Of a stretch of 5,332 bases of DNA, positions 1-5,332 are shown in pieces. The stretch comes from Candidatus Iainarchaeum sp. (GTDB lineage: Archaea > Iainarchaeota > Iainarchaeia > Iainarchaeales > CSSED10-239). Made by a program: the position numbers and the translations under genes. Within the stretch, counting starts at the first letter, position 1. Each line of letters starts with the position of its first letter. The notes beneath the pieces are model-generated. The model did no database searches, was not told the DNA's origin, and saw only the letters and a program-made list of their open reading frames with translations. The stretch is from NCBI GenBank assembly GCA_028693335.1, contig JAQUVR010000051.1:1-5332 (forward strand), in the 5' to 3' direction.

Positions 1-2
1 AA

Positions 3-71
3 GTAGGACTGAATAATTACAAAGGCATTTTAACACCACAGGTGATAATTGAAGATTATCAGGTAATATAA
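3..71 (+). CDS. 3' end of an unidentified upstream gene (partial; continues beyond the window start)
   Basis: It is the only frame open from the window edge (codons 3..68: VGLNNYKGILTPQVIIEDYQVI, stop TAA 69-71). The other two + frames hit stops at 4-6 and 14-16. The stop lies just before the Shine-Dalgarno of the next gene. It is too short to assign a family. Confidence 0.3.
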   Translation, partial: VGLNNYKGILTPQVIIEDYQVI

Positions 72-77
72 AGGGGA
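71..77 (+). promoter_or_regulatory. Shine-Dalgarno-like site for the free-standing homing endonuclease
   Basis: The purine block aagggga is followed by a 7-nt spacer before ATG 84. Confidence 0.5.
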
Positions 78-83
78 ATAGAT

Positions 84-923
84 ATGAGTTATATAATAGA
101 TTTATACACCCAAGGCAATTCTGCGTTAAAAATTTCTAAACAAGAAAATATTCCTGTTCATCAAATATACAAAATATTGGAAAAAAACAATATTCCAAGA
201 AGAAGCAATCGAATAAATAATAAAAAATATAGTTGCAATGAAGATTATTTTGAGAATATAAATACGTCAGAAAAAGCATATTGGTTAGGTTTTTTATACG
301 CTGATGGCTTTGTTTCAAAAAATGAAAAATTTTATAATAGAGGATCGTTAGGAATATCTTTGGCAATAGAAGACAAAGAACATTTAGAAACATTAAATAA
401 AGATTTAAATTCAAATTATCCTATAAACATATATAGTGTAGTTAATGGTTATAAAATTGGTATTCAATATGCAAGAATAATTATTAAAAGTGAAAAAATA
501 TTTAATGATTTGATTGATAAGGGTTTAATTGAAAGAAAATCAGAGATTAAAAAACGTCCAAAAAAAATACCAGAAGAATTAATTAAATATTTTATACTTG
601 GATATTTTGATGGGAATGGTTGTATTTCAATACATAGAAGAAAAAATAATGATAAGTTGGATTTTAAATTTAGAATTACAAGTACAGATGATGTATTATA
701 TTTTATTACAGATTATTTATATAACAATAAATTAATATACAATAAAAGAAAATTAGACAAACGACACATATACGATATTGTCTCTAATTTAGAATACGGA
801 GGGAATAGGCAAGTATATAAAATTATGCACCATCTGTATCAAAATACACCCAGATTTTTAAAAAGAAAACATGAAAGATATTTAATATTAAAAAATCAAC
901 TTATGAAAGAAGGGAAAATATGA
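84..923 (+). CDS. Free-standing two-motif LAGLIDADG homing endonuclease with an N-terminal HTH-like extension
   Basis: The 279-aa ORF has two LAGLIDADG-type motifs: AYWLGFLYADGFVS (about nt 276-317) and KYFILGYFDGNGCIS (about nt 585-629). An ERKS element sits between them, as is common in phage and intein LAGLIDADG enzymes. The N-terminal roughly 40 aa (IDLYTQGNSALKISKQENIPVHQIYKIL) resemble a small helix-turn-helix. ATG 84 has an upstream SD. Stop TGA 921-923 overlaps the dnaE ATG 920-922. Confidence 0.85.
   Translation: MSYIIDLYTQGNSALKISKQENIPVHQIYKILEKNNIPRRSNRINNKKYSCNEDYFENINTSEKAYWLGFLYADGFVSKNEKFYNRGSLGISLAIEDKEHLETLNKDLNSNYPINIYSVVNGYKIGIQYARIIIKSEKIFNDLIDKGLIERKSEIKKRPKKIPEELIKYFILGYFDGNGCISIHRRKNNDKLDFKFRITSTDDVLYFITDYLYNNKLIYNKRKLDKRHIYDIVSNLEYGGNRQVYKIMHHLYQNTPRFLKRKHERYLILKNQLMKEGKI
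907..915 (+). promoter_or_regulatory. Shine-Dalgarno-like site for dnaE, embedded in the 3' end of the upstream endonuclease ORF
   Basis: The sequence aagaaggga ends 5 nt before ATG 920. The ATGA stop/start overlap suggests translational coupling. Confidence 0.4.
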
Positions 924-3220
924 TTAATTTACATGTTCATGATGCAAAAGGTTCATTATTGGATTCTATTGCAACAGTTGATAAAATAGTTGAATTTGCA
1001 AAAAAAAATAATCAAACTGCGATAGCATTAACCAATCATGGAATTATGACTTCATTTGTTGATTTTGTGAAAGAATGTAATAAAAATGATATTAAGCCTA
1101 TCATTGGATGTGAAATTTATGAAACTGATGACATGCATGAGAAGCAAGACACTAGAGATTATCAACAACCAAGATATCATTTAATATTATTGGCAAAAAA
1201 TAAGATTGGTTTGCAAAACTTATTTAAAATAGTATCTATTTCCAATACAGAAGGTTTTTATAAAAAACCAAGAGCATCCTTAGATTGGATTGAAAAAAAT
1301 AATTGTGGGAAAGGAATTATATGTTTAACTGCTTGTCAAGCAGGTAGATTAAGTAAGTATTTAATTAATGATAAAGAATTAGAAGCAATACAATTTGTTA
1401 AACAATTGCAATCTATATTTGATTATGTGTCATGTGAGATACAATCCCATAAAACGATTGATCAGCACAATGCAAATAAAAAAATATATGAATTTTCACA
1501 AAAATATAATTTGCCTTATGTTATTACCACTGATGCTCATATGATAAATAAAAACGAAATTGACACTCATGCAATTTTTGTTGAAATCGGAGAAGGAAGA
1601 GAAGTAGGAGAGAGTTATGTTGATTGTTATTTACAAACAGATTCAGATGTTTACAATATTTTAGAAAAACAATTTTCAAAAGAAATTATAAAAGAGGGTA
1701 TTAATGAAACTATTTTAATTTCAAATATGATTGAAAATATTGATATTGGTTTAAATAATGGTGTTATAATGCCTAAAATACCTGTGCAAGAAGGATTTAA
1801 TTCAAATAAAGAATATTTGAGACATTTAGTTTTCAAAGATTTTGAAAAAAAGTTTTCTCATTTATTAGCAGAAGATCAACAAATAAGAAAAGATAGACTT
1901 GAAATGGAATTGCCTATTTTATATGAGTTAAATTATACAGATTATTTTATTATGTTATATATGTTGGTAGAAGAAGCAAAAAAGAGGGATATCCCAATAG
2001 GGTATTCTAGAGGTTCAGGAGCAAATTGTTTATGTCTTTATATGTTAGGTGTAACTCAAATAGACAGCATTAGATGGGACTTAGATTTTTCAAGATTTGC
2101 TAATTTGGGTAGAAAATCAATTGCTGATTTTGATTTTGATATTTCCAAAAATAGACGAAAAGAATTTATTGAAATATCGGAAGAACTTTTTGGGAAAGAG
2201 AATGTTGCACCAATTGCTACATTTAATACTTTAAGTACAAAAGTAGCAATAAGAGACGTTGGTAAAGTATTAGATGAAAAATCAGAAGAGTATAAAGGTA
2301 AGATACCTTATAAATTACGTGATGAAGTGGCAAAGATGATACCTACTATTAATACTATAAATGATTTAGGTGAGGAAGAAGAAAAAGAAGTATTATTAAG
2401 AGATGTGTTGTTTAAAAACGAAAGATTAAAAGAAATATATGAGCAATATCCCTTGTGGTTTAAGTATGTTATGGAATTAGAAGGTTTGCCTAAAAGTATG
2501 GGTAGACATGCAGCAGGAACTATAATAACTCCCAATCCAGTTGTTAAATATTGTCCTATTTGTTATGATTCTGAAGATAATATTATGATTCAATTAGAAA
2601 TGCATTCAGCAATGGATGATTTAGGTTTAACTAAAATGGATTATCTTGGACTTGAAACAGTAGACATTGTAGATGACACATTAAGAATGGCAGGATTAAC
2701 TTGGGATGATGTAAATATAGATCACTTAAATCTTGAGGATTCAGAAGTATATGAAAAAGTTTATAAAAGTGGCAATACCATTGGAATATTTCAAATGGAA
2801 TCTGCTGAGGCAAGAAGAATGTGTATAGAAGCAGAAGTTGATAATGTAGAAGATATAATAGTCATTAATGCAGCAAACCGACCAGGAACAAAAGACAATT
2901 TCCCTGATTATTGTAAAAACAAAAAATATCCCAATGAAATTGAAGTGTTGCATGAGGATTTGAAGAAAATATTTAATAAAACTCAATATGTTTTACTTTA
3001 TCAGGAGCAAGCATTACAGTTATTTAGATACGCTGGTTTTCCTGAAGAAGAGGTAGATTCTGCGAGAAGAGCAATTGGGAAAAAATTGAAAGATGAAATG
3101 GAAAAATTAGAGATTAAGTTTAAAGAGGGATTGTTAAACAAAAATTGGAATGAAGATCAGATTAATGAAATATGGGGACTAATGCTTAAGCAAGCCGATT
3201 ATTCGTTTAATCGAGGGCAT
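920..3220 (+). CDS. dnaE: DNA polymerase III alpha subunit (DnaE-type, family C), exon 1 (767 codons)
   Basis: PHP-domain motifs: MINLHVHD (HxH), LLDS, TNHG, GCEIY, YHLILLA, LTACQAG, TTDAH. Polymerase core motifs: GYSRGSGANCLCLYMLGVTQID (2000..), ADFDFDIS (2123..), GRHAAG, KMDYLGLETV (2633..), IFQMES, NRPG, LLYQEQ and FNRGH, which ends at 3220. The track ORF continues for 11 non-homologous codons (KIVCHNMVTYC) to TAA 3254-3256, and I read that tail as intron sequence. Confidence 0.9.
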
Positions 3221-3364
3221 AAAATTGTGTGCCACAATATGGTGACATATTGTTAAAAACTTCCGAAACTGCTGGAAACCCCTTAGAGCCTTATAAACTA
3301 CAACGTAATCAGTAATGATAAGCGTGAATGTTTGAAAATTATAAGGATTGGGCAATCAGCATGG
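3221..3364 (+). ncRNA. Group I ribozyme 5' half (IGS/P1, P2, P3, P4-P5 domain, P4')
   Basis: See the helix coordinates in the intron feature. The segment is visibly richer in G+C than the flanking coding DNA (cttccgaaactgctggaaaccccttagagcc). Confidence 0.75.
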
Positions 3365-4226
3365 AAATTATCGTGTATATAGATTAATAATTAGGAGGTA
3401 TATAATTACAAATAAAAAATATTCAAACGAAATAGAAAGACAAATAGTTGATGAATATCTTAACGGAGCAAGCACAAAATATTTGAAAGACAAATATAAT
3501 TTTAAAACGAATAAGTCAATTATAGATAAAGTTAAAAAGTATGGTGAAAATCCAAGGACTCAAAGAGAAGAATTGATGTTAAATAAAACATATGAGGAAT
3601 TTTCAATGTCTATAATTGATAGTTGGTTTAAAGCATATTATTTAGGGTTAATAATTGCAGATGGTTATATTGTTAATAACGTAGTCGGCATTGATATGGT
3701 AGACGAAGATGTTATACAATTTATATCAAATATTATTGATAAACCATATAATATAATAAAAAGAAAACCACCGAGACAAAATAAATATAGAATTACCCTA
3801 AATAGTCCACGTTTAATTGATGAATTTAAACGGTTAAATATTGGAGAAAGAAAATCAAAAACATTAGGTGCAATAAACCTATATGATATTGAATATAAAT
3901 ATTTTCCTTATATAATACGTGGATTGATTGATGGAGACGGATGGATTAGAAAAGATGGCAAAGAATTTTTTATATGTAGCGCTTCGTTAGAATTCATAAA
4001 ATGGTTAAAAAACAAAATGGAAGAAAAAATATATATGCAAGATTTAAATATTGTTCAACAAGATGAAATTAATAAAACCACAATGTATCAATTAAGATCA
4101 TCTTTAAAAAGAAACATTAATATATTAAAAGTCTTGGTATATGACCAACCTTATGGAATGCAAAGAAAATATAATCTTATACACGATAAACCTTCAGAGA
4201 CTATAATGGAAGATACTTTATATTAA
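3348..4226 (+). CDS. Intron-encoded two-motif LAGLIDADG homing endonuclease (start codon uncertain: TTG 3348 per the track, or a non-canonical start near 3402-3405 after the AGGAGG)
   Basis: LAGLIDADG motifs are KAYYLGLIIADGYIV (about nt 3633-3675) and PYIIRGLIDGDGWIRK (about nt 3909-3956), with GERKS between them. The N-terminal part (IERQIVDEYLNGASTKYLKDKYNFKTNKSIIDKVKKYG) is HTH-like. It aligns by eye with the 84..923 protein. Stop TAA 4224-4226. It uses a different frame from both dnaE exons. Confidence 0.85.
   Translation: MGNQHGNYRVYRLIIRRYIITNKKYSNEIERQIVDEYLNGASTKYLKDKYNFKTNKSIIDKVKKYGENPRTQREELMLNKTYEEFSMSIIDSWFKAYYLGLIIADGYIVNNVVGIDMVDEDVIQFISNIIDKPYNIIKRKPPRQNKYRITLNSPRLIDEFKRLNIGERKSKTLGAINLYDIEYKYFPYIIRGLIDGDGWIRKDGKEFFICSASLEFIKWLKNKMEEKIYMQDLNIVQQDEINKTTMYQLRSSLKRNINILKVLVYDQPYGMQRKYNLIHDKPSETIMEDTLY
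3393..3398 (+). promoter_or_regulatory. Strong Shine-Dalgarno (AGGAGG) inside the intron, presumably serving the intron endonuclease
   Basis: A perfect AGGAGG lies in frame within the track ORF. The following in-frame codons are UAU AUA AUU ACA, so no AUG, GUG or UUG sits at canonical spacing. AUU 3405 is 6 nt downstream. Confidence 0.5.
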
Positions 4227-4293
4227 AGTATATGGGATAGTCCAGACCACAACATATTTATATAATATGGCTTGGGAAACCAAGTGTGGTAAG
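4193..4293 (+). ncRNA. Group I ribozyme 3' half (P6', P7, P3', P8, P7', P9 three-way junction, terminal G)
   Basis: It contains the R-like UUCAGAGACUAUA and S-like GAUAGUCC blocks, perfect stems P7 (6 bp), P8 (8 bp), P9 (6 bp), and two nested hairpins, one with a GAAA loop. It ends ...GGUAAG with G4293. Confidence 0.8.
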
Positions 4294-5332
4294 GCCGTAG
4301 CATATGGTTTGCTTAGTTATCTTACAGCATATTTAAAAACGCATTATCCTTTAGAATTTATGACAGCATGTTTAACCGCCAAGAGTGATAATATGTCAAA
4401 ATTAAGTATCTTTATTAATGAATGTCACAGGTTAAATATTCAAGTTGCACCACCAAACATTAATTTATCAGAACGAAATTTTACTGCAATAAAAAATAAA
4501 AATAAAATATTATTTGGATTATATGCAATTAAAGGCGTAGGAGATGCAGTAGTAGATACAATCATAGAAAATAGAAGATATGAAGGGTTTGATGACTTTT
4601 TATCTAAAACAAAGGAATCTGGAAAGATAACCAAAGGAACAATTATCAAGTTGGCAAAAAGTGGTTGTTTTCCAACAAAAAATAAAAGAAATTTTTTGCT
4701 TAGATATGCAAATAAATTATTTGAAAATGATTATAAAAATGAAATTTTTGAAGAAAGAAAAACTTTTAAATCAGTTAAGGAATTAAAAGAAGTATGGGGA
4801 ATTGATACTGATACAATCAAAAATAAGCAAGAGAGACTTAAATTATTCAATCAAAAAAGAAAAGAAAAATTTGACAATGAAGAAGTAGATAGAACATTCA
4901 AAAAAGAAGATGCCCGACAAAAATATATTAAAGAATTTTCGTCAAAATATTTACAAGAAGAATTTATGTGGGAGTTTGAAACTTTATCAATGTTTATTAC
5001 ATATGACCCATTAAAAGAAGCATATAAATATGTTACTCCTTGGGACGAAGTAGACGGTGGAGAAAAAGCAGTTGCTATCTGTGTAGTTGTAGACATTAAA
5101 AGAAAAAAAGATAAAAACAACAATGCTTTTGCCTATTTAGACTTATATACTCCTTATGGGATAATTGAAGCTACTTGTTGGGCAAGGCAATATAAAAACT
5201 TTAATGATTTAATTAAAAAAGGGAATAGTCTTGCAATTTTAGGACGGAAAAGAGATGGACAGTTTTTTGTTGAGTCAATGAAAACTTATAACCAATGGTT
5301 AAAAGATAGAGAAATTAAAATACATAGGAGAT
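4294..5332 (+). CDS. dnaE: DNA polymerase III alpha subunit (DnaE-type), exon 2; partial, continues past the window end
   Basis: I translated this frame codon by codon from 4294 to 5331 and found no stop (346 codons). It reads AVAYGLLSYLTAYLKTHYPLEFMTACLTA (the continuation of the FNKSH block). It then has the HhH region ILFGLYAIKGVGDAVVDTIIENR (about 4507-4575). An OB-fold-like C-terminal region follows: AVAICVVVDIKRKKDKNNNAFAYLDLYTPYGIIEATCW...LAILGRKRDGQFFV (about 5068-5271). It is absent from the ORF track because there is no stop codon in the window. Confidence 0.9.

Follow-up and report, generated by a model that had tools for sequence, protein, structure and literature searches.

Evidence for a group I intron with a LAGLIDADG endonuclease gene inside the FNxxH motif of a phage dnaE gene

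The td intron of phage T4 lies in the thymidylate synthase gene, belongs to subgroup IA2 with P7.1/P7.2, and carries the gene of I-TevI, a GIY-YIG endonuclease. Intron 2 of the nrdE gene in Staphylococcus phage Twort is self-splicing according to the titles of its GenBank record and of the paper cited there, and the record title names the HNH endonuclease I-TwoI. Group I introns are also present in the DNA polymerase genes of the Bacillus phages SPO1 and Bastille, as stated by titles cited in PMC3984707. The locus described here lies in contig JAQUVR010000051.1 of assembly GCA_028693335.1 (Candidatus Iainarchaeum sp.), positions 1 to 5,332 of the forward strand, and this whole stretch of 5,332 nucleotides (nt) is called the window. 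Its host gene is a dnaE-type replicative polymerase gene, encoding the alpha subunit of DNA polymerase III (Pol III alpha, family C) of an AT-rich phage. The gene is divided by an insertion at 3221..4293 that encloses a LAGLIDADG homing-endonuclease gene. The evidence supports the reading of this insertion as a group I intron, with splice sites exactly where they had been predicted. Judged from its sequence, it is very probably a functional mobile intron that splices at 3220/4294 (a slash marks the insertion site) and homes via its LAGLIDADG enzyme. As a kind, such introns are already known, but for Pol III alpha genes they seem not to have been described; the literature searched yielded no account of a group I intron in dnaE or Pol III alpha.

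The interrupted dnaE gene and its alleles

Past T3220, the translated dnaE frame runs on as KIVCHNMVTYC (11 codons) and stops at 3254-3256, and the DnaE continuation AVAYGLLSYLTAYLKTHYPLEFM has its first base at 4294, in a frame that differs from that of exon 1. Excision of 3221..4293 (1,073 nt) yields a single open frame of at least 1,113 amino acids (aa), which reaches the window end. The initial annotation had described this frame break and had claimed that the excision rebuilds an FNKSH-type motif, and the translations of the open reading frames (ORFs) and the alignments bear out both statements. The joined DnaE contains the Pfam domains PHP, DNA_pol3_alpha, finger, HHH_6, and OB, in order, and also matches the NCBIfam DnaE models PRK05673 and TIGR00594. 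A 195-aa stretch over the junction aligns with E. coli Pol III alpha (PDB 2HNH residues 671-858) with no gap at the junction, where adysfnrgh/avaygllsy stands opposite GYGFNKSHSAAYALVSY. The FNKSH-AAY motif of family C polymerases is continuous in the joined DnaE. The closest characterised phage homologue is the DnaE of Clostridium phage Amboise, which is 48% identical to the joined protein and is encoded by an uninterrupted gene; here, too, the alignment has no gap. An exact-sequence look-up of the 778-aa N-fragment, which includes the 11 extra codons, gave no match. The expected spliced mRNA junction 3220/4294 is CGAGGGCAU-GCCGUAGCA.

The boundaries are fixed by a natural intron-less allele. 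IMG/VR was scanned, and two of its contigs, L007 and L008, represent essentially the same phage without the intron. Their identity to the window is 99.6% over 1-3220 and 98.3% over 4294-5332, with no base between the two blocks. Exactly 3221..4293 and nothing else is absent from them, and the frame reads through as ...FNRGH/AVAYG.... The empty allele reads TTTAATCGAGGGCAT/GCCGTAGCATATGG, and the sequence of L007 around the site is TTTAATCGAGGGCATGCCGTAGCATATGG. The two bases on either side of each junction differ between the junctions, so the insertion coordinates are unambiguous. The empty-site boundaries coincide exactly with the splice sites predicted from sequence alone, which confirms U3220 as the last exon base and G4293 as the last intron base. 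The split dnaE pattern is far beyond chance, and its boundaries are independently confirmed by the empty-site allele.

Between the intron-containing and intron-less alleles, the nearest exon difference is at window 4311, a synonymous G/A change (TTG/TTA, Leu) located 18 nt downstream of the insertion, and the nearest upstream difference is 390 nt from the insertion site. These differences are too few for calling a co-conversion tract.

The exact exon-intron junction is present in three metagenome contigs, L044, L045, and L046. L044 carries the full intron. L045 and L046 originate from an assembly of activated sludge and from a JGI metagenome; their intron is 398 nt long (~3489-3886 on the minus strand of L045) and is identical to the window at 398/398 remaining positions. 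The 675 nt that it has lost are bounded by the 9-nt direct repeat AAATATAAT (3492-3500 and 4167-4175), and the deletion ends 2 nt before the 3' strand of P6a. An intact ribozyme despite the loss of the endonuclease fits selection on the ribozyme, and such retention is expected if dnaE function needs splicing. Together, the empty, full, and deleted alleles show that the intron invades, stays, and loses its endonuclease while keeping the ribozyme.

Fold and covariation of the intron

The coordinates of all features are given in Table 1. The initial annotation had placed P1, P2, P3, P4, P5, P7, P8, and P9, together with blocks resembling the Q, R, and S elements, and all of them are found. P3-P4-P5-P6 and P7-P3'-P8-P7' follow in canonical order, and P3 and P7 cross as a pseudoknot, which is general to group I introns. 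The features of a guanosine-binding site are present in G4197-C4243, the bulged A4198, and G4199-C4242, and these bases presumably have the role known from the Tetrahymena intron, which is assigned to them by analogy. The spacer between P7 and P3' consists of UAAU only (4204-4207), and the P7.1/P7.2 expected in this position for subgroup IA2, to which phage introns typically belong, are not present. After P9, the intron ends in AAG with the terminal G4293 (omega G), followed by GCC at 4294. The 3' strands of P6a and P6 (4178-4192) double as coding sequence for the C-terminus of the endonuclease. The intron core is GC-richer than its surroundings, as had been noticed at the outset, with 34-35% against 25% for the internal ORF. 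Promoter and terminator scans within the intron gave matches no commoner than in shuffles.

The fold is conserved in a family of relatives. A family covariance model, R1, was built from nine relatives with the window left out and was trimmed to exclude P1, P2, and P9. In a 388-kb search it matches the window at 3270-3394 with 77.9 bits (E 1.8e-16) and at 4134-4250 with 49 bits (E 1.8e-9). RNAalifold on ten relatives, again with the window excluded, recovered P3, P4, P5, P5a, P6, and P6a. The relatives covary in P2-P6a and P8-P9b, and P7 is invariant in the family alignment. In Dulem virus 36, P7 has both strands changed, with GAACA/UGUUC in place of GACUA/UAGUC. MAFFT misplaced P3', P6a, and P8 in some rows, so the helices were also located per sequence from fixed anchors, and the placement of P3 was checked by a cognate versus non-cognate control. 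Among 14 relatives, P3 occurs as ten different complementary pairs, such as CUUCC/GGAAG, GGGGU/ACCCC, CAACC/GGUUG, and CCCUA/UAGGG, and P6a and P8 consist of unrelated sequences in which the pairing is always kept. The P6a of contig L024 is an unrelated helix of 16 base pairs (bp) enclosing its ORF, and that of Alicyclobacillus phage KKP_3916 has compensatory changes. A compensating change in P1 is found in L024 only, with C at exon position -4 and G in the guide, versus G and C in the window. A 3' core pattern (CAGAGACUA, 15-45 nt, UAUGGKAUAGUCC) matches 22 IMG/VR loci and 35 genome loci.

Several results weigh against a functional mobile group I intron. The initial annotation had proposed a check with the Rfam model RF00028, and the gathering threshold of 50 bits is not reached. 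The whole window gives no match, the 5' half gives a truncated match of 17.1 bits (E 0.024), the 3' half gives none, with only chance snoRNA/miRNA matches from Rfam there, and the natural 398-nt allele gives 13.8 bits over P4-P6 only. P10 is weak, with 2 bp at most, and no ATG, GTG, or TTG lies near the AGGAGG of the intron ORF. Moreover, both alignments used for counting covariation are biased towards the structure. In the R1 alignment of 58 distinct sequences (92.6% paired; 32/36 pairs compensatory), the sequences had been fitted to the model. The MAFFT alignment of seven relatives (paired in 88.8% of cells versus 38-41% with partners slid; both-side changes in 46/75 pairs, reached by 0/500 shuffles) was tested with a structure derived from the window itself. 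Over the two alignments, slid controls were 33-52% paired. RF00028 is a general model that is insensitive to the present intron lineage. Taken alone it is ambiguous, and the group I identity is settled by the family-specific model and the comparative analysis. The group I reading of the initial annotation is supported by covariation, by R1, and by the empty allele.

Table 1. Features of the interrupted dnaE gene and its intron in window coordinates
Feature	Position	Strand	Remarks
dnaE exon 1	920..3220	+	767 codons; ATG 920; ends ...DYSFNRGH; last base U3220; Pfam PHP, DNA_pol3_alpha, finger; NCBIfam PRK05673 profile positions 7-753
Group I intron	3221..4293	+	1,073 nt; terminal G4293; absent from L007/L008
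P1	3216-3220 GGCAU / 3229-3233 GUGCC	+	5/5 pairs; U3220·G3229 wobble at 5' splice site
P2 hairpin	3234-3240 / 3247-3253	+	7/7 pairs; both-side changes among relatives at all 7
P3	3260-3264 CUUCC / 4208-4212 GGAAG	+	5/5 pairs, ~950 nt apart; all 5 compensatory
P4	3270-3275 / 3356-3361	+	All pairs form
P5	3280-3282 / 3350-3352	+	All pairs form
P5a	3289-3296 / 3339-3346	+	All pairs form
P5b	3303-3306 / 3322-3325 and 3308-3311 / 3316-3319	+	GUAA loop; all pairs form
Q element	3354-3361	+	
P6	3363-3364 / 4191-4192	+	All pairs form
P6a	3368-3379 / 4178-4189	+	12/12 pairs, perfect; loop holds endonuclease gene
Ribosome-binding site AGGAGG of intron ORF	3393-3398	+	
LAGLIDADG homing-endonuclease gene	3402..4226	+	~274 aa; in P6a loop; N-terminal helix-turn-helix region
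Segment deleted in L045/L046	3492..4166	+	675 nt of endonuclease gene, in-frame
LAGLIDADG motif 1 LGLIIADGY	3642-3668 (aa 81-89)	+	
LAGLIDADG motif 2 RGLIDGDGW	3918-3944 (aa 173-181)	+	
R element UUCAGAGACUA	4193-4203	+	
P7	G4197-C4243, bulged A4198, 4199-4203 / 4238-4242	+	All pairs form
P8	4213-4220 / 4224-4231	+	All pairs form; 7 pairs covary, all
Endonuclease stop UAA	4224-4226	+	Within P8
S element GAUAGUCC	4236-4243	+	
P9 three-way junction	P9 4246-4251 / 4285-4290; P9a 4253-4258 / 4264-4269; P9b 4271-4275 / 4280-4284	+	P9b GAAA loop; P9 and P9b covary
dnaE exon 2	4294..5332	+	AVAYGLLSY..., open to window end

The endonuclease gene and the relatives of the intron

The intron ORF matches Pfam LAGLIDADG_3 with 32 bits (cut-off 22.5) and the PHROG 4645 endonuclease with an E value of 6e-26. 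It has two LAGLIDADG motifs, each with an acidic residue, as in two-motif, single-chain enzymes. The final 49 nt of the ORF double as ribozyme sequence and contribute P6a, P6, J6/7, P7, P3', and half of P8. Of the canonical in-frame start codons, TTG 3348 is the first, and it falls within P5/P4. The in-frame codons AUA 3402 and AUU 3405 are located 3-6 nt past the AGGAGG. The endonuclease homologue of Dulem virus 36 has an ATG that aligns with window 3402, and a paralogous ORF upstream of dnaE aligns, with its residue 4, from residue 15 of the intron ORF. The start is probably a non-AUG codon near 3402-3405, which is favoured because of the AGGAGG spacing, the Dulem virus 36 ATG, and the paralogue alignment. 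Folding around the ribosome-binding site gave no sequestering hairpin (z = 0.6). The intron-less sequence TTTAATCGAGGGCAT/GCCGTAGCATATGG of L007 and L008 is the candidate cleavage target.

The upstream paralogue is a free-standing ORF at window 84-923 on the plus strand (279 aa; PHROG 4645, E 1e-52) with LAGLIDADG and helix-turn-helix regions, and it overlaps the dnaE start by 4 nt (ATGA). Its paralogy to the intron ORF is distant (30% identity over 98 aa). L007 and L044 carry it as well, and L012, L018, and L019 have a 54%-identical homologue in the corresponding place; L009-L011 and L013-L017 lack it. This patchy presence among the contigs suggests a second endonuclease gene beside dnaE that is mobile on its own.

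The P3-P6 part of the intron (window 3267-3361) is 88-92% identical to the intron cores of Yersinia phage phiR1-37 and of Staphylococcus phages, including Twort nrdE intron 2. A 284-nt query of the intron without its ORF has matches in 230 phage records. Introns at the same site, directly after the His codon of FNxxH, are found in Alicyclobacillus phage KKP_3916 (OQ846916), in the IMG/VR contigs L024 and L030, in Dulem virus 36 (PP511521), and in ten Clostridium/Sarcina genomes. The KKP_3916 intron is ORF-less and keeps a 30-aa remnant that is 70% identical to the C-terminus of the window endonuclease. It scores 82.7 bits with R1 and, over its full length, 27.4 bits with RF00028 (E 3.8e-5), again below 50. 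The same-site endonucleases are 38-46% identical to that of the window over several copies (43% in L024 and 38% in Dulem virus 36), and some copies are ORF-less. The host DnaE proteins of these relatives are only 27-40% identical to the window DnaE.

In the ten Clostridium/Sarcina copies (L051, L057, L060-L062, L066, L067, L071, L077, and L078), the site is FNKSH/AAAYA and the 3' domain of the intron is 81-87% identical to that of the window. The copy in C. cuniculi (L071, NZ_SMUS01000024) interrupts a dnaE located directly downstream of whiA. The copy in C. rhizosphaerae (L067, 1402-1811, NZ_JAESWC010000004) interrupts a dnaE with 2-hydroxyglutaryl-CoA dehydratase genes as neighbours (411-kb contig), and the pieces match the clostridial DnaE equivalog. 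Because of these neighbours and the equivalog match, the two interrupted genes are chromosomal dnaE and not prophage copies. No report of introns of this lineage in Clostridium/Sarcina chromosomal dnaE was found in the literature searched. Homologous LAGLIDADG ORFs occur in some of the Clostridium/Sarcina dnaE genes, as do further introns, at which the gene breaks near aa 392 and near aa 695.

Related introns also occupy nearby sites in phage dnaE, all upstream of the present one. The distance is 3 nt in L015, roughly 9-12 nt in L032 and L038, 14 nt in Bacillus phage Edson, and 15 nt in L040 (DYG/VNKSH). In the phage records examined, the dnaE pieces are given as separate coding sequences (CDSs), named hypothetical protein or polymerase/primase, and no intron is annotated.

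Other interruptions were observed in the same gene. The dnaE genes of KKP_3916 (L004, 1001-7465), Dulem virus 36 (L043, 1445-5341), and Edson (L006) are in 2-4 pieces with group I introns, and three introns in these genes reach 70.6, 41.7, and 39.6 bits with RF00028. In the related phage L016, the FNxxH site is free of an intron, and dnaE instead contains an intein with a LAGLIDADG domain (C...HN/C; ~4478-5760) at ~aa 719; the DnaE of L016 is 68% identical over the N-terminal 719 aa and 46% downstream of the intein. Moreover, R1 matches many Patescibacteria/Saccharibacteria contigs (L047-L050, L052-L054, L059, L063-L065, L068-L070, L072-L075, L079, and L080), most with 105-149 bits, which is above the phage copies.

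Mechanism, alternative readings and known systems

In the proposed mechanism, the ribozyme would fold in the pre-mRNA and P1 would present U3220·G3229. A free guanosine in P7 (G4199-C4242, beside the bulged A4198) would attack after U3220. The terminal G4293 would then occupy the same pocket, and the exons would be ligated to give FNRGH-AVAY and a full-length polymerase of at least 1,113 aa. We infer these two transesterifications from the anatomy of the intron. The LAGLIDADG enzyme would cut the intron-less TTTAATCGAGGGCAT/GCCGTAGCATATGG in a mixed infection, and repair would copy the intron in (homing). For the endonuclease, both activity and target are predicted.

Any other explanation has to accommodate what is directly observed, namely the exact boundaries, the fold with its covariation, the family membership, the homology to the Twort nrdE intron, and the three coexisting alleles. 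It is highly improbable that the gene is truly split, with a 778-aa N-fragment (920-3256) and a C-fragment from ATG 4267 that assemble as a two-piece polymerase. Both ORFs exist as read, and annotated phage records list such pieces as separate CDSs. However, a 99.6%-identical phage has an uninterrupted dnaE, which contradicts the two separate polypeptides that the initial annotation had named as the rival to its own proposal. In addition, the break falls inside an FNxxH-AxAY motif that is continuous in E. coli Pol III alpha, and ATG 4267 lies inside P9a, with no purine-rich ribosome-binding site within 20 nt upstream. The 11 extra codons are the strands of P1-P2, and the intervening DNA has a covarying ribozyme fold.

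The intron may also be group I by descent and no longer splice, so that dnaE would be a pseudogene and the genome either defective or invaded only recently. The low Rfam scores and the weak P10 agree with such a dead intron. It is nevertheless very unlikely, since all core helices are intact with no mismatch, three independent assemblies carry the intron, and both exons are still open and conserved; the endonuclease-deleted form keeps 398/398 ribozyme bases while 675 nt of the ORF are gone. The chance that the insertion is another element, such as an intein, a group II intron, or an IStron (intron plus insertion sequence), is next to negligible, even though the dnaE of the related phage L016 contains an intein at ~aa 719. 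An intein is contradicted by the frame, which closes 11 codons past the junction, and by an insert length that 3 does not divide. LAGLIDADG is the only domain detected in the internal ORF, and no reverse transcriptase or IS200/IS605-type transposase family is found among the matches. One weak PHROG 'transposase' match (E 4e-4) covers the helix-turn-helix region of the intron ORF only. The group I core demonstrated by covariation and R1 stands against all of these elements. Based on the frame, the length, the ORF content, and the empty-site allele, the intein, the group II intron, and the truly split gene were rejected, and a functional mobile group I intron is the preferred reading.

The initial annotation had also raised the question of novelty. 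No paper describing such an intron was found, and this part stands; on the other side, the same lineage at the same site is already present in public phage and Clostridium sequences. The wider proposal, for and against which the balance is even, is that group I introns in Pol III alpha (dnaE) genes are recognised here for the first time, and that one lineage of intron and LAGLIDADG enzyme, which occupies the same boundary in phage and in the essential chromosomal dnaE of Clostridium, moves between virus and host via a shared FNKSH-coding target as an invasion hot spot. The hot spot is based on related introns at five or more positions within ~15 nt, and the classic split DnaE intein probably falls there as well. 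Should the phage-Clostridium link and the shared position with the DnaE intein be borne out, the locus would gain somewhat in interest.

For annotation, the consequence is practical. Such dnaE genes are listed as fragments or hypothetical proteins in the examined phage records and the lineage is missed by RF00028, and the 3' core pattern together with R1 could repair many gene calls. The empty, full, and endonuclease-deleted forms of one phage gene provide a natural snapshot of the invasion-and-decay cycle of a homing element, and the series is usable for homing and splicing experiments. The same lineage in phage and Clostridium dnaE is a testable case of virus-host intron exchange in an essential replication gene. 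Moreover, the endonuclease may find use as a rare cutter, for which a candidate target of 30 bp is defined.

Among known systems, the split DnaE intein of cyanobacteria (Synechocystis/Nostoc) is located in the same gene, probably at ...AEY/CFN..., ~5 codons upstream and just before FN. Its position would then equal that of the L040 intron; a text search for CFNKSH gave no match. The split intein is protein-splicing, and not an RNA element. The T4 td intron, compared here by its general features, is likewise a group I intron of a phage that interrupts a conserved DNA-metabolism gene; its endonuclease ORF is also looped out of P6a, and it homes into intron-less alleles. It differs in endonuclease class, host gene, and P7.1/P7.2. 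The polymerases of SPO1 and Bastille, which are described as Pol I-like (family A) with nicking HNH endonucleases, differ from the Pol III alpha (family C) host and the LAGLIDADG enzyme of the window. As far as those titles go, the common features are a phage replicative polymerase gene and a group I intron encoding a homing endonuclease.

Twort nrdE intron 2 shares 88.5% identity with the window over the P3-P6 domain (window 3267-3362), and its endonuclease ORF also follows the 5' core in the P6 region. The I-TwoI CDS is annotated with a non-AUG (ATA) start past its ribosome-binding site, which is the arrangement proposed for the window. In contrast, the host gene of the Twort intron encodes ribonucleotide reductase, and its endonuclease is of the HNH and not the LAGLIDADG type. 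In its 3' half, the Twort intron contains AACGACUA, and P7 is separated from P3' by a long insert taken as P7.1/P7.2, whereas the window contains CAGAGACUA and a spacer of only 4 nt. The two halves of the window intron thus differ in their nearest relatives. For the P3-P6 half these are the introns of Twort, phiR1-37, and JDF86 (~90% identity), in which the 3' half is of the AACGACUA type and carries the insert; window 4193-4293 belongs to the CAGAGACUA type and lacks it. These differing halves could reflect domain shuffling between phage introns or the loss of P7.1/P7.2.

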